The notes under the pieces: generated by a model | The model's input: the letters and a program-made list of their open reading frames with translations, nothing else | Database searches by the model: none | What the model was told of the DNA's origin: nothing | Shown: positions 244 to 17,269 of the stretch, in pieces | How positions within the stretch are numbered: the stretch's first letter is position 1 | Layout of the letters: each line of letters opens with the position of its first letter | Made by a program: the position numbers and the translations under genes | NCBI GenBank assembly: GCA_041740975.1 | Contig: JBGSKV010000114.1 | Span: forward strand, 1 to 53,236 | Direction: 5' to 3' | DNA length: 53,236 nt | Source of the DNA: Oligoflexales bacterium | Lineage (GTDB): Bacteria; Bdellovibrionota_B; Oligoflexia; Oligoflexales; JALZUQ01

Positions 244-335
244 GAGACTTATATAGTCGAAGTCTCCGGATTTAGTGCCAATGGGGCGGATTTCACGCTG
301 GCCCGCAAATATTGGGCTGACTGGAAAAAGAGGGT

Positions 336-647: not shown

Positions 648-891
648 TAATTTGGCGGTGTCCATCCAGCTCAATGCTTCGCGCGTCGGTACTCATTCAT
701 AGGTCCAATCTCGGTAGGTGGCGTAATTGAGTGGTCAGTGGCCGACAAATGCCCCTGCGTTTAACATTCAATTGTTCGTAGATTTTCGAATTAAAAGTAA
801 CCAAATATATCAATTACTTAGTCGTTAAAACTTAAGTGAGTTAAAGATTTTTCTGGATTTGCCGATAGGCAAATTGTATAAAGGAGTTCGG

Positions 892-1757: not shown

Positions 1758-1840
1758 TCTTGCTAATTGGTGGCGAAAAAAAATCGCAGCCAAAAGACAT
1801 CGAAACTGCACGAAAGAGAATGAACGAGGAGAGGTAATTA

Positions 1841-2200
1841 ATGTCTAAATTTTCCAAGAAAAAGATGGATCGATTTGATGATTATGAAGATATTCGCCGT
1901 GCCAGACTTGGTACGAAAGAGCGAAATAGAATAGACTTAGAAGCATCTGCAGAACTTGGGGCTCTCAAAGCTATGCAAGAGCTTTTGATTGAAGAAATGA
2001 AAGCTTTTATGATCAAAGAAGGAATTGGCATTGTCGAATTGACTAAACGTTTAGAAACAAGCACCAGACAAACCTCCCGAATCATGAAGGGTGAAGCCAA
2101 TGTAACGTTGGCTACATTGGCGGAAGTTGCGATTCATATAGGTAAAGTTCCAAGAATCGTGTTTGAAGATTTCAAGCAACCAGCTCGAAAAGCTAGATAA
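1841..2200 (+). CDS. XRE-family HTH DNA-binding protein (orphan antitoxin-like)
   Basis: 119 aa with a C-terminal HTH (IGIVELTKRLETSTRQTSRIMKGEANVTLATLAEVA). A GAGGAG RBS lies upstream of the ATG. Confidence 0.5.
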   Translation: MSKFSKKKMDRFDDYEDIRRARLGTKERNRIDLEASAELGALKAMQELLIEEMKAFMIKEGIGIVELTKRLETSTRQTSRIMKGEANVTLATLAEVAIHIGKVPRIVFEDFKQPARKAR

Positions 2201-2264
2201 TACATTCTCTATACTTTCGATATCGGTCCAGTTCAAAGTTTGGCGCGCCACTATCGGGAAGTAA

Positions 2265-2606
2265 TCAGGGATGTGGCGTAATGGCGATGATCGTAAGGCA
2301 ATGTTTTAGGACTTTAGGCTTCTTGCCTTTCTTCGGATTCTTTTCAAGCTCATATGGGCCGTAGTGCCAGAATATTCTGTAGGCACCCGAAGTTTTATTT
2401 TGAGCGTAGGACTCAAAAACGTCCTCATTGTTTTTACCAGTGAGCGAAGAGTATTTATGAGTTTGTAAGCTTGGGTGCTTAAGATTCGTTTGCATGAGCC
2501 CCAGAGCTTTTCGGACCTGCTTTAGGATATTTTTTTTGGCAGAATTCGCGACGAGTTCATCGTAATTCTCTTGTGCCTCATCGGTAAATTTCAAACAGAA
2601 CTGCAT
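2265..2606 (-). CDS. YhaV-like / RelE-superfamily toxin
   Basis: GKNNEDV...GAYRIFWHYGP resembles YhaV GKNKDW...GRYRLFFRY. It lies 15 nt downstream of the AbrB-fold antitoxin gene on the same strand. Confidence 0.45.
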   Translation of the reverse strand: MQFCLKFTDEAQENYDELVANSAKKNILKQVRKALGLMQTNLKHPSLQTHKYSSLTGKNNEDVFESYAQNKTSGAYRIFWHYGPYELEKNPKKGKKPKVLKHCLTIIAITPHP

Positions 2607-2621
2607 TTAGTACCGCAAAAT

Positions 2622-2888
2622 TTAGTCTTGATCTACGTATTCAGAAAAATCTTCGGGAGCATCGTTAGTTTTCCCAGCAGCCGAATCTGCCAATCCTCTC
2701 TTGACGCTTTCAAGAGCTTTTTTATTGCGAAAGAGCCAGACTTCTTGAGCCGGTACTTCGATCAGTGGCTTTAAAAGGAGATTGCCGTTTGTAAGTTCTT
2801 CAACTTCAAAACTAGAGGCTCCTTTAGCGAGGGCACCGAGGGTGATGCGGCCTTTATCCCCAACAGCTAATTTTTTTAAGGATGACAT
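2622..2888 (-). CDS. AbrB/MazE/PrlF-family antitoxin (swapped-hairpin DNA-binding domain)
   Basis: The N-terminus KLAVGDKGRITLGALAKG is an AbrB/SpoVT-type motif. An acidic C-terminal tail is present. It precedes the toxin gene. Confidence 0.55.
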   Translation of the reverse strand: MSSLKKLAVGDKGRITLGALAKGASSFEVEELTNGNLLLKPLIEVPAQEVWLFRNKKALESVKRGLADSAAGKTNDAPEDFSEYVDQD

Positions 2889-2904
2889 TGTTGTACTCCA
2901 AGCT

Positions 2905-2924
2905 CCGATATTCTCCCATATCGG
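2905..2924. promoter_or_regulatory. Inverted repeat CCGATAT-N6-ATATCGG upstream of the PrlF/YhaV-like operon
   Basis: Perfect 7-bp arms seen in the sequence, immediately 5' of the minus-strand antitoxin start. Confidence 0.3.
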
Positions 2925-3109
2925 TATTTTCCCACTTTTCTTTAGTGGGAATGCCTATCGAATATAGCTGGGACCAGTAAAAATGCAAGATCTCATGCTA
3001 ACTATCTGATAATTAATGAAAATATTCAGGCACAGAGGCCGTGCTACGCCCGAAGTCATTGGGCGATATCATCGACCAGCATCACAACTCTTCTGCAACT
3101 ATAGACTAA

Positions 3110-3126
3110 TACGTATAAAATACGTA
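3110..3126. promoter_or_regulatory. Inverted repeat TACGTAT-AAA-ATACGTA overlapping a TATAAAAT -10-like box upstream of higB
   Basis: Perfect 7-bp arms seen in the sequence, about 17 nt upstream of the HigB start. Confidence 0.35.
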
Positions 3127-3142
3127 CTATCCGAGGAGCGGC

Positions 3143-3421
3143 GTGATGCAAATTCTTTTGTCTCGTACTGCAAAGAAGCAGCTTCTCCTATGCCCCAAGT
3201 ATATCGCGCGCAAGTTTGATTACTGGGTTGATATGCTCGACACGGTAGGCCTGCGGGAGGCCAGAAAGCACCGTGGGTTTCAGGATGAGCCCTTGCAAGG
3301 TGATAGACAGGGGCAACGATCGGCTCGACTCTCAAAAAGCTACCGAGTCATTTACCGCGAAGTTGGCGAGAGAGCATTCGAGATCATCGAAGTGCTGGAG
3401 GTAAACAAACATGAATACTAA
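3143..3421 (+). CDS. higB: HigB toxin (plasmid-maintenance killer, RelE/ParE superfamily)
   Basis: C-terminal signature PLQGDRQGQRSARLSKSYRVIYREVGERAFEIIEVLEVNKHEY matches the HigB-family LQGD...W...YR....VDY..YH pattern. A GAGGAG RBS is present. Confidence 0.75.
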   Translation: MMQILLSRTAKKQLLLCPKYIARKFDYWVDMLDTVGLREARKHRGFQDEPLQGDRQGQRSARLSKSYRVIYREVGERAFEIIEVLEVNKHEY

Positions 3422-3674
3422 AAAAATGGACTTATCGTTGGGCGAGTTTCTGCGAGTACATCGAATGGGCGAGGATTTGTCTCAGGTAGAGCTTGCAAAG
3501 ATTCTCGGAATCTCCAAGCAACGTCTTTGTGATATCGAGCACGATCGTTTTTCCGTGAGTTTAAAGCTCGCGAAGGATATCGCCAAAAAGTTGAAAATGC
3601 CTCCAGAGTGGCTCGCAAAACTCGCTCTACAGGATCAGATTAGAAAAGAGCGGCTCAATCTCAAAGTAAGTTAG
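3411..3674 (+). CDS. higA: HigA antitoxin (XRE HTH)
   Basis: Overlaps the higB stop by 11 nt. HTH: LSQVELAKILGISKQRLCDIEHDRFSVSLKLAKDIAKKL. Confidence 0.7.
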   Translation: MNTKKMDLSLGEFLRVHRMGEDLSQVELAKILGISKQRLCDIEHDRFSVSLKLAKDIAKKLKMPPEWLAKLALQDQIRKERLNLKVS

Positions 3675-3856
3675 GTGTAAATTAGGTCTAATGACCCTCA
3701 TTCCCGCTCTTAATTTCGCCCAATGTGTCAGTGGACGACCTGCTACTAACCATTAAACTTCCTATACGATGATGGGGGCTATCTCCCTGAAATCGATACT
3801 TTTATCCAATTAATAATTCTCAGCTATATACCGATAAGGTATATCATAGGTATCCT

Positions 3857-3955
3857 ATGAAATTTGAATGGGATTCGAGAAAGAGTTCTAAAAACAAAGA
3901 AAAGCATGGCATTGATTTCCTAGATGTCGAGGAACTTTGGCTCCAGAAAAGATGA
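3857..3955 (+). pseudogene. Truncated BrnT toxin remnant (32 codons: MKFEWDSRKSSKNKEKHGIDFLDVEELWLQKR, then stop)
   Basis: The N-terminus matches the BrnT/DUF497 consensus (FEWD..K...N..KHG..F). The ORF stops after 32 codons, whereas full-length BrnT is about 90 aa. Confidence 0.5.
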
Positions 3956-3966
3956 GGTTGAGTTAT

Positions 3967-4224
3967 ATGGCTAAGTTGAAAAAGCAAAAAAATAAGAGTG
4001 CGGAAGAGTTTGAAAAGCGCTTCGACTCTGGCGACGAAATCATTAGTGAGTTCGATCTCGACACGGCGATCAAAAAAGTAAACGTCGATTTTCCTCAGTG
4101 GATGGTCAAGATTTTGGATTTTGAGGCGACGCGGCTGGGCATTCCAAGACAAGCCGTTATCAAGACTTGGATCAACGATCGAATCGAGTCGAACAAGCGA
4201 GATGAGCGTCGTTCCGTAGGTTGA
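3967..4224 (+). CDS. brnA: BrnA-like antitoxin (CopG/RHH-like)
   Basis: PQWMVKILDFEATRLGIPRQAVIKTWINDRI is typical of the BrnA antitoxin. It overlaps the truncated BrnT remnant in a different frame. Confidence 0.6.
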   Translation: MAKLKKQKNKSAEEFEKRFDSGDEIISEFDLDTAIKKVNVDFPQWMVKILDFEATRLGIPRQAVIKTWINDRIESNKRDERRSVG

Positions 4225-4315
4225 GCAGCCAACTGAACCCATCTATACAAAATATTTTGTCAGTAGCTGACACACATTCACCAGCTTATCTTCTGCGTAG
4301 GAAGTAGGAGGTCGA

Positions 4316-4612
4316 ATGCAGCCCGAAGTATCTCAAAAGCAAATCGGATTCATGGGGCTTGCGCTCGAAAATATCCTCGCATTGGATGCCTCTCTCAGAT
4401 CCAGGATAGGCGTCCAGCTTCTTAAGATTCTGGCGGGGATTCTTCCGCTGGAGTTGGAGTCAATGCAAGTGCTTGGCAACGGCGTTGTCGAGATCAAAGT
4501 CATGGGAGACGACGGAGCGGTAGCGAAGTCACTATTTATCGCCACACAAACGAGTGCAATGAGGAGGGTGCCAGGGGATGGCGCAGGAGAAGTTGGTTTG
4601 TGGGTTATGTGA
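4316..4612 (+). CDS. gp49-like (HigB/RelE-superfamily, phage-related) toxin paralog A, C-terminus diverged
   Basis: Strong paralogy to ORF 4691 over about 65 aa (RSRIGVQLLKIL...VLGNGVVEIKV vs KSRIGFQLRKVQ...TIGVGVLEIRV). AGGAGG RBS. The C-terminus lacks the usual ...LLHGF.KKTQKTP end. Confidence 0.45.
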   Translation: MQPEVSQKQIGFMGLALENILALDASLRSRIGVQLLKILAGILPLELESMQVLGNGVVEIKVMGDDGAVAKSLFIATQTSAMRRVPGDGAGEVGLWVM

Positions 4613-4642
4613 TCCCAAGCCTTAAGCTGCATTCTAAACACA

Positions 4643-4663
4643 TATATACAATCTATTGTATAC
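4643..4663. promoter_or_regulatory. Inverted repeat TATACAAT-CT-ATTGTATA between the two gp49-like genes
   Basis: Perfect 8-bp arms seen in the sequence, about 30 nt upstream of ORF 4691. Likely an operator. Confidence 0.3.
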
Positions 4664-4690
4664 AAATAAACGTATATCGGATATGTTGAT

Positions 4691-5042
4691 ATGACCAAGG
4701 GCGAAACTCGTCGCAGAAAAATTTGTTTCGTTGGGTCCTCTTTATCAGACTTGAGGAAGCTGGATGAAACGGTGAAAAGCCGTATAGGTTTTCAGCTTCG
4801 CAAGGTTCAAGAGGGGCTGCTGCCGGACGATTACAAGCCAATGTCGACGATTGGAGTAGGTGTTCTTGAAATCCGAGTAGAGAGCGAGGATGGGAAAAAA
4901 TGTCGGCCGTTGTTTTTACGTCGCAAAGTTTAAAACAGAAATTTATGTTCTGCATAGCTTTGTAAAAAAATCGCAGAAAACGTCGAGATTAGATCTAGCA
5001 AAAGGTCAGCAAAGATATCGGCAACTCATACGGGATTTGTGA
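4691..5042 (+). pseudogene. gp49-like toxin paralog B, disrupted by a single-nt frameshift near 4925-4932
   Basis: Frame 2 reads to ...CRPLFLRRKV then stop at 4933. The next frame continues KTEIYVLHSFVKKSQKTSRLDLAKGQQRYRQLIRDL, which carries the LLHGF.KKTQKT gp49 C-terminal signature. It ends at 5042 just before the HTH antitoxin. Confidence 0.5.
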
Positions 5043-5053
5043 AAAGAGATAAA

Positions 5054-5350
5054 ATGAGCATTGTAAAAATTGACAGCGAAAAGCTTTTTGAAAAATTAGG
5101 ATTCTCAGATGAGGATTCGGCGATACTGCGGTTCAAGGCAGACCTATACATAGAAATCTGTAAAATCGTCCAAAAGAAGAAATACTCTCGTCGTCAACTT
5201 GAAAAAATATTTGATGCCCCGCAGTCCAGAGTGTCTGAGCTTATGACTGGTAAACTAGACAAAATCTCAATCGAGAAGCTCATCAACTATATAGAAAAGC
5301 TTGGAGCTGTCGTTAAGCCGGTCGTGACAAAGGACCGGCGTGTTGCGTAG
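5054..5350 (+). CDS. HTH antitoxin partner of gp49-like toxin
   Basis: ...QSRVSELMTGKLDKISIEKLINYIEKLGAVV matches the HTH partner found with gp49/HigB-like toxins. It starts 12 nt after the toxin stop. Confidence 0.6.
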   Translation: MSIVKIDSEKLFEKLGFSDEDSAILRFKADLYIEICKIVQKKKYSRRQLEKIFDAPQSRVSELMTGKLDKISIEKLINYIEKLGAVVKPVVTKDRRVA

Positions 5351-5475: not shown

Positions 5476-6345
5476 ATGAAAACAATCATTCTACTTTTGA
5501 GTTCACTTTTTAGTTTTACAGCTTTGGCTGCCGACCCGCTCGAAGCTCCCAAGATCTTCGAAAAAGACGGCTACAAGTACTACTCTTGCGAATACTCGAA
5601 AGACGCCGTGAACATCGCGCTCTACGAAGTCGATACTGAGTTTCGCGCCCTCGCACCGGGACTTAAACCCGATATTTGTTTTGGGCAGATAAAATGTGCC
5701 CGCCAGAATATCGATACAGGTAAAACATCTTGGGCCGAGTTTCTGATGTCATGCGATGCCAACCTCGGTTCTACCTGTCCGACAGCGATGGAATGCGGTT
5801 CGCGCGGTTCAAAAGTTGCACCGATGGTAAATACCGCGCCGCAAATTCAGACGCGAGCGGCAGCTTATGAAGGGTATGTCGATGCGCCTTCCACAGAAAT
5901 CCCAGCCTCATTCAACAAAGGCACCGAAGTTTACACGGCTTGCACGTACGAACAAAAAACGCCCGCGCTCCTCAAGGTTGTCAAAGACCCTAAAGCAAAA
6001 TGGAACCCTTCCATTTGTATGGGTCATACAACGTGCACCGGATTAAACGGTTTGCAAGGCAGAGGCACGGCGTTTTGCGCCGCCAATCCAGACGACTCGT
6101 GTCCGACGGCAATGGAGTGTATGACGCGACGCCACGATTTTTTCACGGGTTTCAATCCGGACCCGCGCATCCTTAGTAGTCGTGACGCACACACCGAAAT
6201 GCTCGCCGCACGCGATGCGGTAAAAATAGAAATCTCGCGGTTACAGAAGCTCGACTCCGGCGAAGCGCGCGAAGCTCTGCGCAAACTACAGGGCCAAGAG
6301 GCGTTCTATAAACTAGCCTTGGAAAACTGGATTTCAAATCAGTAA
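5476..6345 (+). CDS. Secreted Cys-rich protein with internal duplication (…STCPTAMECGSRG… / …DSCPTAMECMTRR…)
   Basis: Signal peptide MKTIILLLSSLFSFTALAADP. Repeated Cys motifs. No recognised family. Confidence 0.5.
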   Translation: MKTIILLLSSLFSFTALAADPLEAPKIFEKDGYKYYSCEYSKDAVNIALYEVDTEFRALAPGLKPDICFGQIKCARQNIDTGKTSWAEFLMSCDANLGSTCPTAMECGSRGSKVAPMVNTAPQIQTRAAAYEGYVDAPSTEIPASFNKGTEVYTACTYEQKTPALLKVVKDPKAKWNPSICMGHTTCTGLNGLQGRGTAFCAANPDDSCPTAMECMTRRHDFFTGFNPDPRILSSRDAHTEMLAARDAVKIEISRLQKLDSGEAREALRKLQGQEAFYKLALENWISNQ

Positions 6346-6397: not shown

Positions 6398-8065
6398 TTA
6401 TTCGTACTCGGTAAAAATCAGCGCGCTCATTTCGCCTGCATCGTCGCCGCGATTTTCAATACTTTCGTGTCCAAGGCGACCGGAGTTAGCGCGTCCCCAG
6501 CATTTGAGTCTGTCATCGTTGAATAACGCACAAGTATGCACGTTACCAGTCGCCACTAGCTTGGCGTCGCTGATACCTAAAACTGCGGGTAAGCTGGCCA
6601 TATCGCCCGGGCTTCCCCCCATGTTATTTGTATTGTCCGCTCCCAGTTGCCCGTGAAGATTGTTTCCAAAGCACTTCAGTTGATTAGTATTATTCAAAAC
6701 GCAAGTAAAGTAGCCGCTAGCGGTGACTTGCTTGATATTTGCAAGGTTAGAAATCACCCCGAGTCCCGTCATCTCTCCAACTTGCCGACCAATACTTGCC
6801 GTGTCGTCGCTACCAAGCTGTCCATCACTGCCTTCACCCCAACATTTTACATTTCCATCATTTAACAACGCGCAGGCATGGTAGCTTCCGGCGTGAACTG
6901 AGACGGCATTATCTATGCCGATAACCTCAGGCAAGGCTTCCATTTCACCTGGAAGGGAGCCGCGAGTTGCATCCGTACTTTCGATTCCGAGCTGACCGGC
7001 ATTGTTGTTACCCCAGCATTTGACCTTTCCGGTGCTCAAGCGAGCGCAATAAAAATGCGTGCCTGCAGTTATTTGCGTGGCATTGGTAATTCCTATGACA
7101 GAAGTCAACGTTGCCATTTCTCCTGGGGCGTCGCCTTGCGGCGTAGCGATATTGACGCCTAACTGACCTAACGTGCTTTGGCCCCAGCATTTTATTTCGC
7201 CGTTTGCGAGCAAGGCGCAGGTGTTACTGTATCCCGCGGCCACTTGAATGGCGTCACTAATGCCGATGACATCGACGGCGTCAGCCATCGCTGTGCCACT
7301 ACCGTTGCCTACACTAGTCGTAGAGTCGATGCCCAAGCGACCATTGGCATTACCACCCCAGCAGCGAATTTTGCCGGAGTCAAAGAGGACGCAGGTGTGA
7401 TTCAGTCCCGCAGAAATTTGGACAGGTGCACCAGAGCTTGAGCCAAGGTTGATATCAGCACCAACCCCGTTGGGGGGAGGCATGTGGTTTGCGGCCGCAC
7501 CTATCGAGTTAGTGGCATCAGTTCCTAGTTGTCCGGAAGTTCCGGAGCCCCAGCAGCGAACTCCTCCCGATCGTCGAATAATGCATGTATGGGCTTCTCC
7601 AAGGGCAAGATGTTTGGCGTTGAGTCCTTCCGGAGTGTCTACGGAAGTTTGAACGTACGAGGAGGTATTATTCGCGGCGTCTTTGACTAAAACATTGAAG
7701 TAGTATGTCTGATCGACATCTAAGTTTGCGACGAGTTCATTGGTCAAGTTTGGCGTCCAGTCTTTTACGACCACGCCATTACTCTCGGCATTGGCGACAC
7801 TATCAATGTTAGCGCTGTTCGAACGCACGACTTTATATTGTAGATTCGCGGCGGCAGTTTTATTATCGCTTCCCGCAGTCCATGAAATATTGACGGTCGT
7901 GTGGGTGACGTCCGAGATATTAAGGCTTCCGCTGGCGCCGGCAGTTGGCGCGGTCGTGTCCGCCGTGTCAGTTGGCTGATCTTTTTTGTCTTTTTTATCG
8001 GAAGAGGACTTGCAAGACAGGGCCGTTAAAAGCACAAGAACCGAAATCGCTACTCGCATATTCAT
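6398..8065 (-). CDS. Lipoprotein with N-terminal fibronectin-III-like domain and RCC1/BLIP-II repeats
   Basis: Signal/lipobox MNMRVAISVLVLLTALSC. At least 7 repeats of the ...CWG.....GQLG... type (RCC1). FN3-like LNISDVTHTTVNISWTAG. Confidence 0.7.
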   Translation of the reverse strand: MNMRVAISVLVLLTALSCKSSSDKKDKKDQPTDTADTTAPTAGASGSLNISDVTHTTVNISWTAGSDNKTAAANLQYKVVRSNSANIDSVANAESNGVVVKDWTPNLTNELVANLDVDQTYYFNVLVKDAANNTSSYVQTSVDTPEGLNAKHLALGEAHTCIIRRSGGVRCWGSGTSGQLGTDATNSIGAAANHMPPPNGVGADINLGSSSGAPVQISAGLNHTCVLFDSGKIRCWGGNANGRLGIDSTTSVGNGSGTAMADAVDVIGISDAIQVAAGYSNTCALLANGEIKCWGQSTLGQLGVNIATPQGDAPGEMATLTSVIGITNATQITAGTHFYCARLSTGKVKCWGNNNAGQLGIESTDATRGSLPGEMEALPEVIGIDNAVSVHAGSYHACALLNDGNVKCWGEGSDGQLGSDDTASIGRQVGEMTGLGVISNLANIKQVTASGYFTCVLNNTNQLKCFGNNLHGQLGADNTNNMGGSPGDMASLPAVLGISDAKLVATGNVHTCALFNDDRLKCWGRANSGRLGHESIENRGDDAGEMSALIFTEYE

Positions 8066-8582
8066 CCATCCTATGGAAAGTTCAACTAAGTTTCATGGAT
8101 TAATCTTATCCATATCTTACTCGATATATTTTGCTTATCCAAGGCGGCAGGCAAAAGTATTCCGGTTCAAAGCTCGACTTAAGAAACTGGATTTTGAAAT
8201 AACGTGGTATTTTTCACGGTGGCTTTGACGAGAAGCAAATCCTTCAAAACTTTGTCTTTAAATTTGGAGAAGCCACCTTCATGCCAGTTGGCAGTCAGAG
8301 TCTGAGCTGGCAAATTTGCGGGAAGGCAAAGTAAGGCCAGAAATAGAAATCGAATCATTTGGCATCTCGATTCGAATTGGGCTGATACTTTCGGTAAGAG
8401 CACGCGGCTTATCCGGCTTGACCAACGTTGCAATATTGCTCGAAAAGTTTTATATATACCTGTAATCATGATATAAAATACCATTCTTTAAAATACTTGC
8501 CTATTCTATGATTTTAATATAATAATCGACATTCTAATACAAAGTTCATGAAATAGTAAAAATATAAAAGAGACCTACTACT

Positions 8583-10199
8583 ATGATGTTTTCATCGTTA
8601 CGGCCCTGGCTTCACACTGTCGCTTTCAGTTTATTTGCCTTGGTTTTAACGGCCGGCATGCCCGCCTTTGCAGAAGGATCTTCCGAAATAACTCAACAAG
8701 TATCTGTAGCCGTTCCCGACCCAGGAGCGCTGCTAGAGAATTCTGATCGGCATTTTATTTTTAACGCTAAGCTCGACGAGCTTCCCCAGTTTATCGCGCG
8801 CACGCGAGAGCTCGCACCCGGTAAAAGAATTCGCGTCGTCATGATCACCCCGAGTGGCGAGCCGGAAGAAATTTTACTCGATAGCATTGGTGAGGTACTT
8901 CAACCTGAAGACCAAATCGGTTTTATAGAGTTTCAGCCTCCCTCCGAATCCCATCTCGAACCAGGCGAGCAGCTCTTAGATAGCGACCGGCAAGAGGGTG
9001 AGGAGTTTCACCGACACTGGCGATCAACCTGGCGAAATCAACTCGGAAAAATTAGAAAAACCACAAATTCACGCTTACAAAAATACCAGAAAATTACTGA
9101 GCAAGAATCTAAGGCTCGCGCGGCTTTTTCCGGTAAGATTAAAGCCGTCATTACCTCTACTGTTTGGGTGACGTCTTCGCTTTGGGCTGCATACCAAGCG
9201 GCTACTGGCGGATCGGAATACGCAGCGACGTATGCCACTTGGGCGATTATTTCTGGGATTATTGGCGCTCCCTCGGCTGCCTATGTAGACATGTGGTTTC
9301 ATGAAAACTTTTATGCTTATGCCATGTTTAAACGAAATCTCCGTATTCCAGTGGCTAAGATAAAGCTTGCATTAAACTCTATCGGTCGTGTGTCCAAAGG
9401 CCTTGCGAACACGCTAGAGCGCGGCGCGCACCGGTTTAATTCGGCCTACTGGTTCAAGTCTTTTGCGGGCAGCACGTTGGTTACTTCTGCTTTTACGATT
9501 ATATTCAGAGTACTTGCGGATATGCAGAAGCTCAATAAAGAAGGTGTTCCTGCTGTTTCATTCGAATGGTGGGTAGAGTTGTGGAGAGAAATGAAGCCGA
9601 CTTTATACTTGTTCGCACTTGGTTCCAAAACCGAGACCGCTCTTGCCACTCTAGAAGAAAAAGGTATGCCAAAATCCATTGCCTACGCGGCCTATGGATA
9701 TTTTAATTGGAACTTCTATATCATGGCGCAAATGCGAAATTTCTCTATTCCAAAAAGGTATCCCGTATATGGCGCTATGGTGTTTAACTTTTTATTTTGG
9801 ATGGAAATGGGTGTCCGGGCGATGACTATCAGTGCCTCGGCGGTTACTCCGATTATCTCGAATAGAGCTCGATATAATTCTAAAATATTGACGCAGTTTC
9901 CGCGAGACGATAAGACCATAGACGTTCTGCTTTTCTCCGACAAAATCCCCGTTGCGGATCAAAACAGTATCTTGATTTTGAATAAACGCACGGAGGCGTA
10001 CAAGCTCAACGATGAAGTCGCCAAAGGTGAAGGAAGTGAAAAGGATATCTTTGTCATTACCCAACAGTCCATGGATATCGTGACTGATGATATTCCACAA
10101 GAACTGTCAAGGCAGAGTATTGCGCAGACTTTGGCTCGCAAGATTCAGCGCGGCGTTCAAAGCATCAAGGCTTCTTGTGCGCAAGTTTTTGCTCCTTGA
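8583..10199 (+). CDS. Hypothetical membrane protein (signal peptide plus several TM helices)
   Basis: 538 aa. N-terminal signal ...LTAGMPAFAEG. Hydrophobic segments in the middle. No recognised domain. An AT-rich promoter region lies upstream. Confidence 0.5.
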   Translation: MMFSSLRPWLHTVAFSLFALVLTAGMPAFAEGSSEITQQVSVAVPDPGALLENSDRHFIFNAKLDELPQFIARTRELAPGKRIRVVMITPSGEPEEILLDSIGEVLQPEDQIGFIEFQPPSESHLEPGEQLLDSDRQEGEEFHRHWRSTWRNQLGKIRKTTNSRLQKYQKITEQESKARAAFSGKIKAVITSTVWVTSSLWAAYQAATGGSEYAATYATWAIISGIIGAPSAAYVDMWFHENFYAYAMFKRNLRIPVAKIKLALNSIGRVSKGLANTLERGAHRFNSAYWFKSFAGSTLVTSAFTIIFRVLADMQKLNKEGVPAVSFEWWVELWREMKPTLYLFALGSKTETALATLEEKGMPKSIAYAAYGYFNWNFYIMAQMRNFSIPKRYPVYGAMVFNFLFWMEMGVRAMTISASAVTPIISNRARYNSKILTQFPRDDKTIDVLLFSDKIPVADQNSILILNKRTEAYKLNDEVAKGEGSEKDIFVITQQSMDIVTDDIPQELSRQSIAQTLARKIQRGVQSIKASCAQVFAP

Positions 10200-10469
10200 A
10201 AGTTTTAGTTAAAAAAAAATAGTATTCACTCGGATTTCTTTTTTCTTTTATTTCTTTTGCATGATGCACGTCTTTTCTATCCGGCTTCTTGGATCCGTCG
10301 GGGTTTTTAAATGACCCGGTCAGACTGCACCGGTATCATTTTGACTTAGCTGACCTGAATTTCTGTTACCTCTTTTCACACCACATCAAATCTAACGCCA
10401 TTTCAGCTTGGCGCGCTTCTTGTAATACCCCTTATTGACGGAGAAATTACGGCATGAGGGGACCAGCCA

Positions 10470-11828
10470 ATGAAGATGGCAGTTGCGATTCTTTTATTCT
10501 TAGTTCCGGTAGTCAGTTATTCAGACGATATCGAAAGGCCCTTCCCCATCAATCGCAGCCCGGATGGGAAACAATCGCATTACAAAACTGTTGAGCGAGC
10601 GAACTGGGAGCATAACTACGCGGTTGAGTCGAGCATCTGCGCTTCCAAAGCCATGCATATCTTGGGACAGCTCGAAAGCATCATCAAAAACGATCTTTCC
10701 ACGGAAGCTAGCTCGAAGCCAGTCTTTCTCGAAGCTCAGCTTAGCAAGTTAGATGCGGGGGCGGTTGATGTTCAGGCGTTTGAGACGCTGGCCTTTCAAG
10801 CGGCATTGACCGGCTATACGCAACTTGATTCCTACCTCAGCGCAAACTACGACATGCGTCCACTGACCAACTTTCGGGCGTTGTTTTCTATTCAAGAGCG
10901 ATTCTTCGGTAAGGTTGTCGAGGCGATAGGCGCTCAGTTCGACGCGACTTCACGAGACGAGCTCATCGCCAAAATAAAAGAACTCGACCAAAAAAATGAA
11001 AAACTCATCGAAGTTCTCAATCGCCAGACCGTAGTCGATTCCGGTGCGTTGCAACTTCTATCACTCACGTCATCAAAGCTTCGCATGCTGAAAGGCGACT
11101 TCGACAATTACTACGATTATGTTTTATCGCCGTACTGTCTTTATCAGCCTTTTACGAAATACGTCACGCCTGCACGCGAGGCGGTTGATGAATGGATAGC
11201 TGAGTTCGAGACGTTGGAGCATCACGTCAACGCCGAACAAACCATGCGGAGCCGCATCGTTGATATGATTCACTCTTCCACTCGACTGTACTTACAAGTC
11301 TTATGGGCAGCTTCGGCTAATGAAGATATTTCCACTCTTCGCCAAGAACTCAAAAAAGTCATGGCACTCGACTTGCTGTCACATGAATTAAACCAGTGGT
11401 GGAACAACATCGCCTCGGGTGGCATCACCGGAGGACTTCATACGCAGTTTCTTCAGTATGAAGCATCGCTTTCTCGCTTGAAAATGTATCGTGGCAAACT
11501 CGATCAGTTTCGACGCCGCATGGAAGCGCTTTCCATTCCTTCCGCACAGACCCAAACGTTTCTTAAAGATCGTTTGAAGCTCATTGAAACAGAAATTTCT
11601 TCGGCGGAAATGTCCGTTCGCCAACAAGGCTGGAAGGGTATGCATAAGCGCCAGCGCTTTCTTAATGAAAAACGCCTCAACGTGATCGATCAGTTTGTGC
11701 CTCAGTGCAAATTTGCCATCGCAGCTTACCAAGCGCTGGACTCTGACTCCATCGATGAAGACGGCTACAAATATCTCGAAGCCCAATACCGAACCGTGGT
11801 CGCTGCGTGCAAAGGAGCGCAACAATGA
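10470..11828 (+). CDS. Hypothetical secreted, helical protein. Stop overlaps the start of the ART toxin gene (ATGA).
   Basis: Signal MKMAVAILLFLVPVVSYSDD. 452 aa with no recognised domain. Translationally coupled to the next gene. Confidence 0.5.
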   Translation: MKMAVAILLFLVPVVSYSDDIERPFPINRSPDGKQSHYKTVERANWEHNYAVESSICASKAMHILGQLESIIKNDLSTEASSKPVFLEAQLSKLDAGAVDVQAFETLAFQAALTGYTQLDSYLSANYDMRPLTNFRALFSIQERFFGKVVEAIGAQFDATSRDELIAKIKELDQKNEKLIEVLNRQTVVDSGALQLLSLTSSKLRMLKGDFDNYYDYVLSPYCLYQPFTKYVTPAREAVDEWIAEFETLEHHVNAEQTMRSRIVDMIHSSTRLYLQVLWAASANEDISTLRQELKKVMALDLLSHELNQWWNNIASGGITGGLHTQFLQYEASLSRLKMYRGKLDQFRRRMEALSIPSAQTQTFLKDRLKLIETEISSAEMSVRQQGWKGMHKRQRFLNEKRLNVIDQFVPQCKFAIAAYQALDSDSIDEDGYKYLEAQYRTVVAACKGAQQ

Positions 11829-13915
11829 AAAACCAATATTTGTTTCTAGTTTTACTTTTTTTAGGATTTAGCCAAGTTATCACAAGAGACGCAAACGGTG
11901 ATCCAGGTGATTCAACTCACTGGGACTTTGATGAAAATGGTAATCCTCAACATGGCGATGGCCACGGCGGATTTGGCGGCGGTATGGGGCCCATCACTCC
12001 GGGCGGTGGAAATAGTGGCGGCGGAAACAATGGTGGCAATGGAGGCAACGGCGGAAATAATGGCGGAGGAAACAACGGAGGCGATGGCGGCGGAGACGAC
12101 GACTTCGATGATGACTTCGATGATGATTCGGGCGACGATGACAACGGAAATGGTTCAGGAGGCAGTGGAGGTAGTGGAGGTAGTGGAGGTGGATCGGGAG
12201 ATAACGATGGTCATTTTAATCCAGGAAATGGCGGCGGAGGCAATCAACCCCCGCCCAACAAAACTCTTATCAATGGCGAGTGGGTTGATGATGCCGATGT
12301 TCCTTGGGTTCGAGCCAAGATCGCCGAAGCGGAAGCAGCCAAAGAAAGATTCAAAGCTGATGCAAAAGCCTTAGAAGACAAATACAAAAATTTAAACTTA
12401 AAACAAACTAGTGACGAAAAACGAAAAGACTCAGCGCAAACTCGCATTGAAATAGCCAAGTCACATAACGATTACGTCAAGCAAGTTGAAGATCAGCTAC
12501 CAAATCCAGAAGATTTACCTGGTTCAGATCCTTATCCGTTCACCACACCCGCTTCGAGTGTGGATGGGCAGAAACTGAAAGAAATTCAGGACTACCGCGA
12601 TTACGTAAAAGGCGTCGTTGATCAAAGCAACGACGCTCCCTCCACCAAACAAGCACGTCAAGGCCTCGTAGATGTAGCGGACACCGCGATCCATACAGCG
12701 GATCACGCTTATTCATCTGGGGATCGTGAGGCTGGAGAAATTTCTAAAGAAATGGCCGAGACGACACTCGATCTTGCACTTAGTTTTACGCCAGGTGTGG
12801 GTTGGGCGAAGGATGTTTATGAAGCAGCTTCCGGAAAAAGCTTAGTGACTGGCGACGCGCTCTCTAACTTCGACAGAAACTTAGCCGTACTGGGAGCCTG
12901 CACGGGCGGCCTTGCTAGTAAGTTCAAAGTGTTTTCGAAGTCCGCCAATGTCATCAAAAAAATGGCTTCAAAGTTTCCGGGTAGCTCCACACTTTTTGCA
13001 GGATTAGGAAAGTTCTGGAAGAAAGGCTCACAACACGAGTCCGAACTTCACGCGGCAGCCGAAGCCTTCGAAAAAAACAAACACACATTCCCCGAAATAA
13101 CCTCGGCGAAAGAATACGTGAAAAAGGCGCACGATATTGCCAATAATCCAGCCGCAGACTCGTTTACTCATGTAGTTCCAGGTGGCGGCGAGCTTTATAT
13201 GGATAAGCTCAACAGGTTATACGTGGAAAAATACGGCTCGCTACCACAAAACATGTACAAACGTGCAGACGATGTGTTTGATGCGGGTGCTAAAGTGGAT
13301 TTGCCATCGGGCAGTGTGAATTCTAAATACTATAAAGCAGATCAAGATACCCTTAACAAATACAGAAATGATCCAAGCCATTTTGAAGATGGCGAACTTT
13401 CCAACTTTGATATCATCGACCAAAATGCATTAGAGTTGAAGGCCAAGCATCCGCATCTGGCTGAGTTAAGTAACGAAGAGGTCGATGCTTTGCGACGTTA
13501 CACGGGAATGGGACATGACAAAATCAACAAAGCTTTACGAAATGGCGACATGAGCGAACTGTCCAGACTTGATCCGCAGATTAAGGCGATACTCTCGGGC
13601 ATGAACAAGTTGCCGCCTTACAAAGGTAATGTCTTAAGAGGCGTGTCGATTCCCGACACGGAAATCGCAAAACATGTCGTCGGCCAGGAGATTACGATGA
13701 AAGCGTTCACAAGTTCCTCTAAATCAAAGGCCTGGACCGGCAACAACGTCTTATATACTATCAAGTCTCATCAAGGACGTGATGTCAGTAGTGTGGCCTT
13801 CTGGGCTAAAGAAGAAGAGGTACTGTTCCAAGCGGGCACTCGGTTCAAAGTCATTCAAAAAAATTATTCACCTACTTCTGGATCTTGGGTCATTCAAATG
13901 GAGGAGATTCTTTAG
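11825..13915 (+). CDS. Secreted polymorphic-toxin-like protein: signal peptide, Gly/Asn-rich and poly-Asp/Phe low-complexity region, pre-toxin TG-like domain, and C-terminal C3/VIP2/iota-type ADP-ribosyltransferase domain
   Basis: ATG at 11825 is 7 nt after AAGGAG. The ORF-track start at 11807 is an in-frame GTG. The ART motifs are in order: LRRYTGMGHDKINKALR (helix), YKGNVLRGV (Arg), FTSSSKS (S-x-S), and EEEVLFQAGTRFKV (ExE on the ARTT loop, implying arginine specificity). The PT-TG-like stretch is FTPGVGWAKDVYEAASGKSLVTGDALSNFDRNLAVLG (about 12783-12900). Confidence 0.7.
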   Translation: MKNQYLFLVLLFLGFSQVITRDANGDPGDSTHWDFDENGNPQHGDGHGGFGGGMGPITPGGGNSGGGNNGGNGGNGGNNGGGNNGGDGGGDDDFDDDFDDDSGDDDNGNGSGGSGGSGGSGGGSGDNDGHFNPGNGGGGNQPPPNKTLINGEWVDDADVPWVRAKIAEAEAAKERFKADAKALEDKYKNLNLKQTSDEKRKDSAQTRIEIAKSHNDYVKQVEDQLPNPEDLPGSDPYPFTTPASSVDGQKLKEIQDYRDYVKGVVDQSNDAPSTKQARQGLVDVADTAIHTADHAYSSGDREAGEISKEMAETTLDLALSFTPGVGWAKDVYEAASGKSLVTGDALSNFDRNLAVLGACTGGLASKFKVFSKSANVIKKMASKFPGSSTLFAGLGKFWKKGSQHESELHAAAEAFEKNKHTFPEITSAKEYVKKAHDIANNPAADSFTHVVPGGGELYMDKLNRLYVEKYGSLPQNMYKRADDVFDAGAKVDLPSGSVNSKYYKADQDTLNKYRNDPSHFEDGELSNFDIIDQNALELKAKHPHLAELSNEEVDALRRYTGMGHDKINKALRNGDMSELSRLDPQIKAILSGMNKLPPYKGNVLRGVSIPDTEIAKHVVGQEITMKAFTSSSKSKAWTGNNVLYTIKSHQGRDVSSVAFWAKEEEVLFQAGTRFKVIQKNYSPTSGSWVIQMEEIL

Positions 13916-14766
13916 TGACGAAACATAATGCGACGCAACTTCCGGATATTTTCGACCGCGAATTCTATTTTGATGGAATGAGTTTTCGTCGGATTGCGTC
14001 GCTTCGCGCGTCATTTTTGGAAAAGCTTGCCGAGATCGGTCCACAATCTTCCAGCATCGAGTTTGAAGGGCGAGTGAAAGACTTGTTTCTCGCGCTAGCT
14101 AACGAGGATGACCCGAAGCAACCTTTGGAGTTCGTGGCCACGGCAATGGGGTGCATTCGATTCTTTGAGCGCTCTTTACTTAAGGGCGTTGCTGATTTTT
14201 CATCGTGCTTGGAAGCTGAGTATCGGCGCTGGCAAGAACTGCAAGGAGGTCGTGATGAGGAATGCCTTCCTTTGTGTCGAGTTGTTCCTATTGGCGTGTT
14301 TTTTGCTCCGGTCGAAGCATTTGAGTACGGAAAGCAAAGCGCTCAACTGACGAGCGGGCAAAAGTCAGCAATTTTGTCGGCGGGATTTATGGCGGCACTG
14401 ATTTCGGGACTGCTACGAGGCGGAAATTTCTTCCAATCATATGATAAGGCAATGGCGATTTTCAAAAAAGAACTGGGCTGTAAAGAAATCGTCGAATGCC
14501 TTGCAGGAGCCGCAAAACTCGCCGCAGATCCATCCAAAACACACGAGGCTATTCGGTCCATAGGACCATGTCTTCAACCTAACCAGACAAAAGGCAGCAC
14601 CCCCGCTCGTGCGATCACAGCTAGTATTTATGCGGTAATGGGCCTTGAAAATTCGACTCGTCAGTCCGACACCAACCAGCTCAAAGACTACGATAAGCTT
14701 ACTGCTCTCGCCTCCGAGTGTTCTGATCTTCGGTCTACTCTTAATACCGACCAGACTCGCGCCTGA
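13915..14766 (+). CDS. Candidate immunity protein for the ART toxin (no recognisable domain)
   Basis: A GTG at 13915 overlaps the toxin TAG by 1 nt (taGtg), with GGAGGAG 8 nt upstream. 283 aa from this start. The ORF-track start at 13885 lies inside the toxin gene. Genetic linkage is the only evidence for the immunity role. Confidence 0.45.
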   Translation: MTKHNATQLPDIFDREFYFDGMSFRRIASLRASFLEKLAEIGPQSSSIEFEGRVKDLFLALANEDDPKQPLEFVATAMGCIRFFERSLLKGVADFSSCLEAEYRRWQELQGGRDEECLPLCRVVPIGVFFAPVEAFEYGKQSAQLTSGQKSAILSAGFMAALISGLLRGGNFFQSYDKAMAIFKKELGCKEIVECLAGAAKLAADPSKTHEAIRSIGPCLQPNQTKGSTPARAITASIYAVMGLENSTRQSDTNQLKDYDKLTALASECSDLRSTLNTDQTRA

Positions 14767-14912
14767 TCAAATCTATACCGTCTCAATCCAATCAAATGTG
14801 GCTTTTTCGACCTCTCCGTACGTTTTGGCGCAGTTAAGCGTTTGGAGGATTTTGGCAACCCAATTGCAATGTTGGTTCTATAAGAATTTTTTTGGCACTA
14901 AGGAGTAAACAA

Positions 14913-16316
14913 ATGAAATTCACCTTTTGGAAGGTATGGGGAGTAGCGAGTTTGGTTGCGGGATGCGGTTCGCTGGAGGATTCTGCACAGAATATTTCAA
15001 GCATTCAAGGTTACGAGCTGCAGGAACGGCGAGTTCCTGAGTGCGGCGTCGAGGCATATAAGTCGGGCGAGCATTCGTCATGCGGCATTCAATCCTATAA
15101 AGAAGCGCGATCCCCTGCATGTGGCGTTGAGCTTTACAAAAAAGTCAAGTCGTCCAAATGTTCGGGTTATCGGGCTAGTTCTGTTTATGAAAAAAGAAAA
15201 ACCTCAACTTGTGGGGGTTCCAATCCAAGGGATCATTTGAAATGCCCAGCCGGGGAGTTGCATCACTCTTACACTGCTTACACAGAAGACTGCTGGAAGA
15301 ACGCCTTCGACAAAAGCAAGCGCTGGAAGGGGATTCAAAAATGTACAATCCCAGAAATCATGAACTCGTGCCGGATGGCGGAGTTTGGCGTGGAAAAATA
15401 CAAATCCTGCAGGGCAACGGCGCATGGCATCGAACGCTACAAATCTTGTGCTCACGCATCCTTTGGGGTTGAAAAGTACAAAGCCTGTACCTTGCGAGCC
15501 ACAACAACGGAAGTTGAAGCCAAAATCGCCACTGTTAAGGCAAGCTACAAGGACTTTGCCCTCAAACTTTTGCAGTACCAAGCGGACTATTACGCACAAA
15601 TCGGCGGCAAGCAGTCTCTTGGATGCCTTATCACTCGCTACGAAAATGATCCTTTATACGTGGACATTGCGACCGACCTCAAAACCCTTTTCGCTCAGAC
15701 TTTTGGCGAAACGTATCAAGGGCCCTTCAGCTGTGACTTGCCGGTTTTGACGATGGACGTCTGTGACGTGGGTGACACGTCGTCTCGGTGCGCTTCATTG
15801 GCGGCCTACAAGAAGACGCGCCAATGGTTCACAGAAGAACTTCAGGTTTTGAAGAATCTTCAAGACGATGTTGTCGCTAGAGCGAATGCATCGATCAAAG
15901 GACAACTTGCCACTTTGTCGCAAGACCTTGCGGTGGAGTACGAGAAGTCACCGGTTATTGACGAAACATTTCAAAAAATGAACTTGAAAAATACAATGTC
16001 ATCGATCAACCAAGGCCATGCTGTCAAGTACAACTTCCGTCACGAACTCGAATGCAAAAACACATTGGATCAAGTCGTTTTACAAAGCATTGGCCGGACA
16101 GTTGCAAATGACACGGTTTTTAATATCGGAAGTCGATTGTCCGGGATCACCGCCAAATGCTTTTACCTTGTAAAAGGTGATATTGACGGCACCGTTCAAT
16201 GGTTCTCGGACCTTCCCGGTTTATTTTATGGGTCGAATATTTTCGAGGTGACAAGTGACGGAACCGTATCGACAGTCCCATCGATTTATACGGTTTACTC
16301 AGTCATTAGCAATTAA
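14913..16316 (+). CDS. Lipoprotein with tandem Cys-containing CGVExYK(S) repeats
   Basis: AAGGAG RBS, then MKFTFWKVWGVASLVAGC (lipobox VAGC). At least 7 repeats such as ECGVEAYKSGEHSS, CGVELYKKVKSSK and FGVEKYKSC. Confidence 0.5.
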   Translation: MKFTFWKVWGVASLVAGCGSLEDSAQNISSIQGYELQERRVPECGVEAYKSGEHSSCGIQSYKEARSPACGVELYKKVKSSKCSGYRASSVYEKRKTSTCGGSNPRDHLKCPAGELHHSYTAYTEDCWKNAFDKSKRWKGIQKCTIPEIMNSCRMAEFGVEKYKSCRATAHGIERYKSCAHASFGVEKYKACTLRATTTEVEAKIATVKASYKDFALKLLQYQADYYAQIGGKQSLGCLITRYENDPLYVDIATDLKTLFAQTFGETYQGPFSCDLPVLTMDVCDVGDTSSRCASLAAYKKTRQWFTEELQVLKNLQDDVVARANASIKGQLATLSQDLAVEYEKSPVIDETFQKMNLKNTMSSINQGHAVKYNFRHELECKNTLDQVVLQSIGRTVANDTVFNIGSRLSGITAKCFYLVKGDIDGTVQWFSDLPGLFYGSNIFEVTSDGTVSTVPSIYTVYSVISN

Positions 16317-17269
16317 TTGATTTGGCAATGGATGGTCTCGCGGCAGGATGTGCCGCGAGATTTCTTTTTCAATATGAATGTACGATGTGGATGCTTTTGG
16401 GTTTTCGAACTCCACTTCACTTTGGTCGCGACAATCCCTAAAGTCACTAGTCCAATTCCAATCCACTCCACTCGCGCCAAATTCTCGTCGAGTAACCAGG
16501 CTCCCAATAGTCCCGTAATCACGGGGACAAGTGGAACAAAAAAACTGACGCGCGCGGCGCCGAGATTTTTAACCGCCATGGCAAAAAAAACGTGGGCGAC
16601 AATGGAAGTGAGAACGCCTTGAAAAAAACCGTGGATCAATAAATTTGGCAGAGGCGTTTGAGTTAAGAACTCCGAGTGAAGAATCGTGTAGGGCAGTGCA
16701 AACAACAAAAACGACCAGGTGTTTACAGCCAAGATGGCATCGAATACCTGAATTTTCCATTTTTGCAGTAAGACACTATAAACGGCCCACATCGCTCCTG
16801 CGCTTATAAAAAATACGTCGCCAAGATTGAGTTTGGCAACGCCACCCATTAAGAAAAGTCCGATGATGACGGTGCCCACTCCACCAATGGTGGGTGCGGT
16901 GATTTTCGTACCGAAGACTTGGGCTGCGGTGAGAACGGAAACCAAAATCATCGAGCCATTAATGAATGTCGCCGCGTGGGCGGCGGAAGAATGTGCGATG
17001 CCGGTTGCTACCAAAAGCATGTAGGGAGCGCCCATGAATAGTGACAGTCCGACAAGTTTTTTGGAGAGTAGGCGTCTTCCTAACTTCATGATGACAAACG
17101 GTAAGAGTAAAATGCCCGCCACGAGGTAGCGCAAAGCCGACAAATCCAGTCCCGACAGACTACTTTGAGCAGCGTGCCGCGTGAGGAGCATCCAGCTGGT
17201 CCATATCGTCAAAGCTCCCAGTACGCCAATGTAACCCAGGTATGGCTTGGTTTGCGTGGTCATCGTCAA
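16313..17269 (-). CDS. DMT-superfamily (EamA-like) transporter
   Basis: About 10 TM helices in two EamA-like halves. Confidence 0.7.
   Translation of the reverse strand: MTMTTQTKPYLGYIGVLGALTIWTSWMLLTRHAAQSSLSGLDLSALRYLVAGILLLPFVIMKLGRRLLSKKLVGLSLFMGAPYMLLVATGIAHSSAAHAATFINGSMILVSVLTAAQVFGTKITAPTIGGVGTVIIGLFLMGGVAKLNLGDVFFISAGAMWAVYSVLLQKWKIQVFDAILAVNTWSFLLFALPYTILHSEFLTQTPLPNLLIHGFFQGVLTSIVAHVFFAMAVKNLGAARVSFFVPLVPVITGLLGAWLLDENLARVEWIGIGLVTLGIVATKVKWSSKTQKHPHRTFILKKKSRGTSCRETIHCQIN

Follow-up and report, generated by a model that had tools for sequence, protein, structure and literature searches.

The DNA analyzed here is a stretch of 53,236 nucleotides from a bacterium of the order Oligoflexales (GenBank assembly GCA_041740975.1, contig JBGSKV010000114.1, positions 1 to 53,236 of the forward strand), referred to below as the window. 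It contains a candidate polymorphic toxin-immunity cassette built around a protein with an ADP-ribosyltransferase (ART) domain at its C terminus. Five consecutive open reading frames (ORFs), all on the plus strand, are considered: gene 1 (8583-10199, 538 amino acids [aa]); gene 2 (10470-11828, 452 aa), encoding a predicted secreted, all-helical protein; gene 3 (11825-13915, 696 aa), the polymorphic toxin, recognized from its ORF, Pfam domains, and phmmer matches to Protein Data Bank (PDB) chains; gene 4 (13915-14766, 283 aa from a GTG start), encoding a cytoplasmic protein of the ADP-ribosylhydrolase (ARH) fold of DraG and Tri1, the candidate immunity protein; and gene 5 (14913-16316, 467 aa), encoding a cysteine-rich lipoprotein identified by tblastn and its lipobox. 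Residues of gene 3 are numbered from the ATG that yields 696 aa; an in-frame GTG at 11807 is an alternative start that would yield 702 aa. An initial annotation, made from the sequence alone, had delimited a locus of genes 1 to 4 at 8583-14766 and described it as two uncharacterized secreted or membrane proteins, a secreted ART toxin, and an immunity-like gene.

The arrangement of the four plus-strand ORFs is as initially annotated. Genes 1 and 2 are separated by a 270-bp gap (10200-10469), genes 2 and 3 share an ATGA overlap (11825-11828), and the stop codon of gene 3 overlaps the start codon of gene 4 by a single nucleotide (taGtg, 13913-13917), with a GGAGGAG Shine-Dalgarno sequence located about 8 nucleotides (nt) 5' of the gene 4 GTG. 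No promoter is claimed in the 10200-10469 gap, where the matches from a promoter scan were no commoner than in shuffled sequence. Past gene 5, a strong terminator-like hairpin on the plus strand (16334-16362; 12 bp, 7 of them GC pairs, with a T-rich stretch after it) probably marks the end of the transcription unit, and no comparable hairpin is present between genes 4 and 5. The region of genes 3, 4, and 5 is not an assembly artifact because a contig from an independent assembly (Logan SRR28170464, contig L001) is 100% identical to the window across positions 13787-15838. None of the five genes has a paralogue within the window. Assignment to a known antiphage defense system was rejected, given that PADLOC returned no match for any of genes 1 to 5. 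The only PHROGs match among these genes was that of the gene 3 ART domain to ART modules of phage virion proteins; a phage origin of the locus was rejected because phage genes are absent nearby.

Gene 3 consists, in order, of a signal peptide, a flexible spacer rich in Gly, Asn, and Asp, a helical region, a PT-TG pretoxin domain, a segment similar to PDB chain 8ey4, and the ART domain. The Sec-type signal peptide (MKNQYLFLVLLFLGFS/QV, 11825-11884) was judged, like the other signal peptides described here (those of genes 1, 2, and 5), by hydropathy and inspection by eye; residues 1 to 40 contain no cysteine and thus no lipobox. The low-complexity spacer (residues 25 to 145, 11897-12259) comprises 50 Gly, 20 Asp, and 18 Asn among its 121 residues. 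It is encoded in part by tandem repeats (12004-12190; a 45-nt unit present twice, a 12-nt unit present 2.6 times, and a 9-nt unit present 3.7 times), and its length may therefore vary between strains. An ORF in an alternative frame (11898-12374) was dismissed as an artifact of this repetitive DNA. The PT-TG domain (12758-12934), which contains the sequence GVGWAKDVYE, is unambiguous (Pfam PF14449, E = 7.5e-14, 51.9 bits against a cutoff of 23.5). This domain, by which gene 3 is formally classed as a polymorphic toxin, had been missed by the initial annotation. It is followed by 65 residues (416 to 480, 13070-13264) that match 8ey4_A, an 88-aa Escherichia coli protein described in the PDB as a "PT-VENN domain-containing protein" (phmmer E values of 1.4e-5 and 2e-6). 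Neither the segment nor 8ey4_A belongs to a Pfam family, and no plasmid match was found for the segment, which could be a cell entry module or a small second toxin.

The C-terminal ART domain (13460-13912) carries the complete R-S-ExE signature. The motifs listed in the initial annotation are all present in order (LRRYTG at residues 556 to 561, VLRGV at 603 to 607, FTSSS at 628 to 632, EEEVLF at 663 to 668, and AGTRFKV at 670 to 676), and the predicted catalytic residues are R605 (13637-13639), S630 of the STS motif (13712-13714), and E663/E665 (13811-13819). The resemblance to ART proteins far exceeds chance: two Pfam families match above their curated cutoffs (ADPrib_exo_Tox, E = 8.8e-10; ART, E = 6.3e-07); the NCBIfam model XopAI also matches, at 7.6e-19, below the cutoff of that model. 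Among proteins of solved structure, the best phmmer match is Tre1 (6dre_B/6drh_B, E = 1.2e-11), followed by SpvB (2.3e-08) and XopAI (6.9e-08), with further matches to Vis, VsdC, and ExoT. The Arg, STS, and ExE residues align residue for residue with those of Tre1. Thus, the description of gene 3 as an ART toxin with a Sec signal was sound, as was the analogy drawn with Tre1/Tri1, Tre1 being the nearest solved relative of the domain. A word index search with full-length gene 3 returned nothing, with the Gly/Asp low-complexity region crowding the candidate list; the same search with the C-terminal 396 aa returned only two ART proteins (P0002 and P0003), in both of which R, S, and ExE are invariant. 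P0002, from Nocardia, has no ARH neighbor, and the ORF downstream of P0003 is cut by the end of its contig; the pairing of ART and ARH in the present locus was therefore not inherited together with these relatives.

Several loci related to gene 3 were identified with its pretoxin part as the query in a search of one genome per species. Two of these are in metagenome-assembled genomes (MAGs) of Oligoflexia (L003 and L004, the latter in an Oligoflexales MAG, contig JALZUO010000180.1, with the toxin at 6974-8662), and a third is in Bdellovibrio bacteriovorus YOA24 (L005, NZ_JBLVRT010000003.1). A metagenome scan with an alignment of the PT-TG region yielded one contig (L006), which is cut at its upstream end. 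The N-terminal part of gene 3 aligns with all of these (tblastn E values from 1.6e-27 to 4.8e-10 for L003 to L005 and of 2e-20 for L006), G/D- or G/S-rich stretches follow the signal peptide in L004 and L005 too, and the WAKDVYE motif of PT-TG is invariant across the four homologues. Conversely, the C termini and the downstream genes differ. The C termini in L004 and L006 are EndoU-like (5.6e-5 and 8.4e-4, respectively, both below threshold), and those in L003 and L005 have no assigned family. Downstream of the toxin, L003 encodes an overlapping 112-aa ORF followed by an Imm8 protein (5e-29), L005 an overlapping 125-aa ORF, and L006 a CdiI_4-like ORF (8.7e-4). At the level of sequence, a conserved N-terminal part to which different toxin domains are joined, each with its own downstream gene, is what defines polymorphic toxin systems; along with it, gene 3 has an export signal and a pretoxin domain, and an immunity-type gene follows the toxin here and at the related loci, with L004 as the exception. 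Judged from these features, gene 3 encodes a polymorphic toxin of the ART class with a Sec-type signal and an intact R-S-ExE signature, in a type of cassette that has to date been observed only among Bdellovibrionota/Oligoflexia-like bacteria.

The target of the toxin appears to be bacterial, as we infer from the relationship to Tre1, the cytoplasmic antidote, and relatives of the EndoU, Imm8, and CdiI types. The ExE motif, which has been linked to arginine specificity by analogy (PMC8120803), and the ARH partner suggest an ART of the arginine type. The same Pfam families include C3, VIP2, and SpvB, and SpvB, XopAI, Vis, and ExoT are among the PDB matches, so that gene 3 could instead be pictured as an exotoxin of the actin- or Rho-modifying kind directed against eukaryotic cells, with gene 4 serving solely as a safety device of the producer. 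C3, VIP2, iota, and SpvB indeed share both the ART families and the R-S-ExE layout with gene 3; however, their targets are eukaryotic actin or Rho, some of them need a separate binding component, and they have no immunity gene, unlike the present locus, in which a PT-TG domain, an ARH partner, and polymorphic relatives are found. Among solved structures, the closest is that of the antibacterial Tre1, the PT-TG domain and relatives carrying EndoU-like RNase domains with Imm8- and CdiI-like partners are hallmarks of interbacterial toxins, and a dedicated cytoplasmic antidote implies a target that is present in bacteria too. Furthermore, Pfam revealed neither a B component of a binary toxin nor a domain for receptor binding, and no component resembling protective antigen (PA) was detected among genes 1, 2, and 5 with Pfam, NCBIfam, PADLOC, or PHROGs. 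We consider a role against eukaryotes very unlikely.

Gene 4 was initially annotated as an immunity-like gene with no recognizable fold. The first part of this description fits the data, and the second does not, given that gene 4 matches the Pfam family ADP_ribosyl_GH (E = 3.8e-11). It is highly divergent: at 90% identity gene 4 is a singleton, the word index search returned only gene 4 itself, and an exhaustive HMMER scan of 1.84 billion representatives yielded only 120 proteins at E ≤ 1e-3, all of which match in the central part alone (approximately residues 115 to 218) at 30 to 35% identity. A phmmer search against PDB chains gave no match at E ≤ 1; however, a profile of gene 4 relatives matches DraG, ARH1, ARH3, and Tri1. 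The closest ARH relatives (P0006, P0011, and P0024) include giant proteins of 1053 to 1688 aa that consist of two to three complete ARH domains each, with no other recognized Pfam domain. In a MAFFT alignment, E64-D65-D66 of gene 4 falls under the TDD motif of the family and D258-Y-D260 under the DSD motif. A profile of 30 ARHs that excludes gene 4 aligns with residues 75 to 113 and 115 to 250, and residue 75 corresponds to profile position 64, so that only about 11 extra residues are present at the N terminus; these may form a short plug. Hydropathy indicates no signal peptide. Gene 4 is thus, by its sequence, a very divergent protein of the DraG/Tri1 (ARH) fold, and its coupled translation with gene 3, the lack of a signal peptide, and the ARH fold support its role as an immunity-type partner. 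Because of this fold, the immunity assignment is better founded than when it was first proposed. The competence of gene 4 as a hydrolase is uncertain.

Of the remaining genes, two recur next to related toxins. Gene 2 starts with an N-terminal hydrophobic signal (MKMAVAILLFLVPVVSYS) and is a singleton in a collection of 15 billion proteins; its single-sequence AlphaFold2 model is all-helical, with a predicted local distance difference test score of 47, which is inadequate for searching by fold, and a metagenome scan with a gene 2 alignment returned nothing. Nevertheless, a homologue of gene 2 lies directly upstream of the L003 toxin (tblastn E = 7e-18, 22% identity over 232 aa), which makes gene 2 a candidate accessory, export, or delivery partner. 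Gene 5 carries the lipobox VAG/C, 19 cysteines (in the 463-aa ORF), and repeated G-x-E-x-Y-K-x-C motifs. At each of the two Oligoflexia loci, a homologue with a conserved cysteine pattern lies upstream of the toxin at a distance of two genes (tblastn; L004, 4912-5745, E = 1e-12; L003, 7622-7987, E = 6e-10). Accordingly, gene 5 appears to be a conserved neighbor of PT-TG toxins in Oligoflexia and is a candidate accessory or delivery partner as well. Gene 1 begins with a signal peptide of the classical kind (..PAFA/EG) and contains three to four moderately hydrophobic segments (at about residues 214 to 239, 290 to 317, and 398 to 421), and tblastn detected no counterpart of it at any of the loci L003 to L005.

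These findings revise the boundaries of the locus. The initial annotation was right that genes 1 and 2 have no recognizable domains, with no Pfam, NCBIfam, PADLOC, or PHROG family assigned to either. Its suggestion that both upstream genes are parts of the system holds for gene 2, which is linked to the toxin through the L003 homologue, and fails for gene 1, which lacks a counterpart, stands apart across the 270-bp gap, and is probably unrelated to the cassette. Moreover, a locus that ends at 14766 stops too early, omitting gene 5 and its homologues near the toxin in both Oligoflexia loci. Because homologues of genes 2 and 5, and none of gene 1, are found at related loci, and because the hairpin appears only after gene 5, the functional unit is most likely 10470-16316 rather than 8583-14766.

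The Bdellovibrio locus offers a clue to the export route. In L005, the PT-TG toxin and the overlapping 125-aa ORF (9446-11226) are situated between gspF and gspG of a complete gsp cluster (gspC-D-E-F ... G-H-I-J-K), a setting that, by analogy, is consistent with export by Sec and subsequent type II secretion. On the minus strand, two genes whose products are secreted or lipoprotein-like adjoin the toxin and the 125-aa ORF in this locus. In gene 3 itself, Pfam detected no PAAR, Rhs, or VgrG domain.

Taken together, these observations lead us to regard the region 10470-16316 as probably a polymorphic toxin-immunity cassette that comprises an exported ART toxin (gene 3), its antidote (gene 4), and envelope partners of the toxin (genes 2 and 5). 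Under this model, gene 3 would be coproduced with gene 4 and would enter the Sec pathway by means of its signal peptide, and gene 2 and/or gene 5 would act in the envelope to aid its export, display, or delivery. The toxin would then probably cross the outer membrane to reach the cell surface or the medium and enter a different bacterium, which could be a competitor or a prey cell. In this cell, the ART domain would modify an arginine of an essential cytoplasmic protein by ADP-ribosylation, and growth would stop. Gene 4, made in step with the toxin by translational coupling, would shield the cytoplasm of the producer and of siblings into which the toxin is delivered, whether by binding to the ART domain, by removing ADP-ribose from the modified arginines, or both.

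A number of observations weigh against this model, in whole or in part. Only four related loci (L003 to L006) were found. One of them, L004, has no immunity gene adjacent to the toxin, so that either the immunity gene lies elsewhere or none is needed. Between the EndoU-like toxin of L004 and a convergent gene of 1426 aa, there is no suitably placed plus-strand ORF of ≥30 aa; the sole small plus-strand ORFs (8846-8947 and 8949-9056) sit under the end of the 1426-aa gene. With regard to the envelope partners, L005 has a homologue of neither gene 2 nor gene 5, and homology between gene 2 and the L004 gene in the equivalent position was rejected as unsupported (BLASTP E = 0.049; hhalign probability, 0.3%), which leaves the latter as a positional analogue only. 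With regard to export, no type II, type VI, or type VII secretion system (T2SS, T6SS, or T7SS) and no contact-dependent inhibition machinery were identified among the scanned ORFs of the window, which contains no gsp genes, and the T2SS link comes from a single genome, that of L005. The remaining points concern gene 4. The Glu of GDALGxPxE is apparently replaced, as are both His residues of THGHP, which reads TSGQK; the 30-ARH profile reaches neither metal-binding motif and leaves the N-terminal 74 and the C-terminal 33 residues unaligned; there is no long N-terminal extension in the style of Tri1; and the AlphaFold2 model, built from an ARH alignment and hence biased to the ARH fold, reaches Foldseek TM-scores of 0.42 to 0.45.

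The last group of observations raises the question of how gene 4 would neutralize the toxin. Gene 4 could be a catalytically dead pseudoenzyme derived from an ARH that occludes the ART active site by stoichiometric binding and removes no ADP-ribose. In addition to the substitutions above, a family insert of about 50 residues, which carries RRAPGxTC, is deleted, the last 40 or so residues of the family are missing at the C terminus, the independent ARH profile alignment ends before both metal-binding motifs, and the confidence of the model falls below 50 at residues 1 to 26 and 251 to 283. Nonenzymatic immunity to ART toxins is, moreover, documented for TriX (PMC11606950). On the other hand, D65, D66, D258, and D260 are aligned by MAFFT with the metal ligands of the family, so that these four Asp ligands may survive, and the retention of the ARH core at 30 to 35% identity argues for some selection on the scaffold. 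We view loss of catalysis as a serious contender whose chances fall somewhat short of even. The comparison with Tri1 is instructive in this regard. The 366-residue PDB chain of Tri1 combines an N-terminal helix (residues 27 to 33) that plugs the ART site, as part of a long N-terminal extension used to plug Tre1 (PMC11606950), with an active hydrolase domain; gene 4, of the same DraG-like ARH fold, has 283 residues, about 11 to 25 extra N-terminal residues at most, and eroded metal-binding motifs.

The erosion of the gene 4 catalytic motifs also bears on whether the pair is directed outward at all. An ART next to an ARH of the DraG family is also the layout of DraT/DraG (PMC8120803), a reversible regulatory pair acting on an endogenous protein. 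A working regulatory hydrolase, however, would need the opposite of what is observed in gene 4, and regulation of this kind is further contradicted by the signal peptide, the long nonenzymatic N-terminal region, and the PT-TG domain of gene 3 and by relatives that swap the ART domain for other toxins. Such a function is extremely improbable.

As for delivery, the toxin might not be released but rather held at the outer membrane, in association with the lipoprotein encoded by gene 5 and the product of gene 2, and handed over when the envelopes of two cells, or of predator and prey, come into contact, in a manner akin to the SitA toxins of myxobacteria. SitA proteins are modular lipoproteins with conserved N-terminal escort domains, polymorphic C termini, and cytoplasmic immunity (PMC8546572), and they resemble the proposed gene 3 system in being Sec-exported modular toxins with a conserved N terminus, a polymorphic C-terminal toxin that is active in the cytoplasm, and immunity in the cytoplasm. 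The toxins of L003 and L004 have lipobox-like signals (FTLAC and LAAC, respectively), gene 5 has a lipobox (VAGC), and the nearest relatives belong to Bdellovibrionota, among whose members are predators that attach to the envelopes of their prey. Gene 3 itself, however, has no Cys in or after the signal peptide and hence is not a lipoprotein; its sequence is not similar to the escort domains of SitA, and no genes resembling TraA/TraB were detected among the scanned ORFs of the window. In addition, the SitA toxins described in PMC8546572 are nucleases, not ARTs, and the location of the L005 homologue in a T2SS cluster favors release. Hand-over by contact is, on balance, possible but rather unlikely for this locus; free or T2SS-mediated release would rank slightly above it, both routes being deduced from gene content and context.

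The remainder of the window contains additional genes of interest. At 300-5350, about 10 small ORFs on both strands resemble, judging by their translations only, a toxin-antitoxin island with helix-turn-helix antitoxins of the XRE type (for example, 3411-3674), toxins of the RelE/HigB type (for example, 3143-3421), and an AbrB-like protein (2622-2888). The sole member of this run that was scanned with hidden Markov models (2265-2606) matched no family. At 5476-6345, the plus strand encodes a secreted, cysteine-rich protein of 289 aa with an internal duplication ("CPTAMEC" occurs twice) that has no Pfam family and is unlike gene 5. Divergent from gene 1, the minus-strand gene at 6398-8065 encodes a lipoprotein-like product in which an fn3-type domain precedes a propeller of RCC1 repeats (WD40_RLD, 2.4e-82). 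Finally, the minus-strand region 28813-33647 includes two genes for pilin-like proteins (31765-32418 and 33108-33647), both bearing a methylation motif at the N terminus, which adjoin a gene for a 904-aa protein with no Pfam family.

The initial annotation had considered a module of this architecture to be undescribed, which overstates its novelty, given that ART toxins paired with ARH-fold immunity proteins form an established kind of interbacterial weapon, on record outside this lineage. Tre1 is a T6SS effector of Serratia proteamaculans (PDB 6DRE/6DRH), and its pairing with Tri1 has been validated experimentally (PMC8120803). Tre1, however, is a PAAR protein delivered by a T6SS; gene 3 instead carries a Sec signal and a PT-TG domain, and no T6SS gene was identified among the scanned ORFs of the window. 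Lmo0067 of the Gram-positive bacterium Listeria monocytogenes (PDB 8za7) is, according to its PDB description, part of an ART-ARH effector-immunity pair. The computational catalogue of Zhang et al. (2012; PMC3482391) comprises Tox-ART-RSE toxins with Imm-ADP-RGHD immunity, lists ADP-ribosyl glycohydrolase among the immunity proteins and delta-proteobacteria among the phyla, and names "T2SS", standing for export by a signal peptide, among the export routes. Genes 3 and 4 belong to this same class; the catalogue does not, however, contain the cassette of the present lineage with its gene 2-like and gene 5-like partners. A 2026 survey of PT-TG (PMC13483458) reports "PT-TG toxin" architectures without trafficking domains in monoderm and diderm phyla and suggests that these rely on several different secretion systems or that their functions are not known. 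Like the proteins of that survey, gene 3 has a clear PT-TG domain ahead of the toxin; the follow-up work of the survey concerned the T7SSb-linked W10XG toxins of Bacillota, and the terms "ADP-ribosyl" and "Bdellovibrio" are absent from its main text. In our literature searches, the combination of PT-TG, ART, and ARH was not found described as such, nor was an ART toxin or polymorphic toxin of the gene 3 type in Bdellovibrio. Thus, the class is already known, and what is new is the lineage, an ARH partner that is extremely divergent and eroded, and the two recurring genes for secreted partners.

A more far-reaching possibility is that genes 5, 2, and 3 form a hitherto undescribed Sec-dependent, multiprotein toxin delivery module specific to Bdellovibrionota/Oligoflexia that arrests prey or rival predators, with gene 4 as a pure binding antidote evolved from an enzyme. 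We regard this scenario as speculative and improbable. If it is true, the module would consist of a cysteine-rich lipoprotein, a secreted protein of long helices, and a PT-TG polymorphic toxin and might act by ADP-ribosylation of the division or translation machinery of prey or rivals. In concept, it would be comparable to the umbrella toxin particles of Streptomyces and to the outer membrane exchange of SitA in myxobacteria, to neither of which it is related in sequence.

Should none of the prospects set out below be borne out, the locus would be just another representative of a catalogued class. Its significance lies in the extension of the ART-ARH pairing to a PT-TG toxin with a predicted Sec signal in Bdellovibrionota/Oligoflexia, a sparsely sampled lineage of predatory bacteria. 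The locus may reveal how polymorphic toxins of diderm bacteria that possess only a signal peptide exit the producer and enter the target, with genes 2 and 5 and the T2SS-embedded homologue of Bdellovibrio as concrete candidates for the secretion route. It may also show whether an ARH enzyme can decay to an antidote that acts by binding only and whether predatory bacteria use such toxins on their prey.

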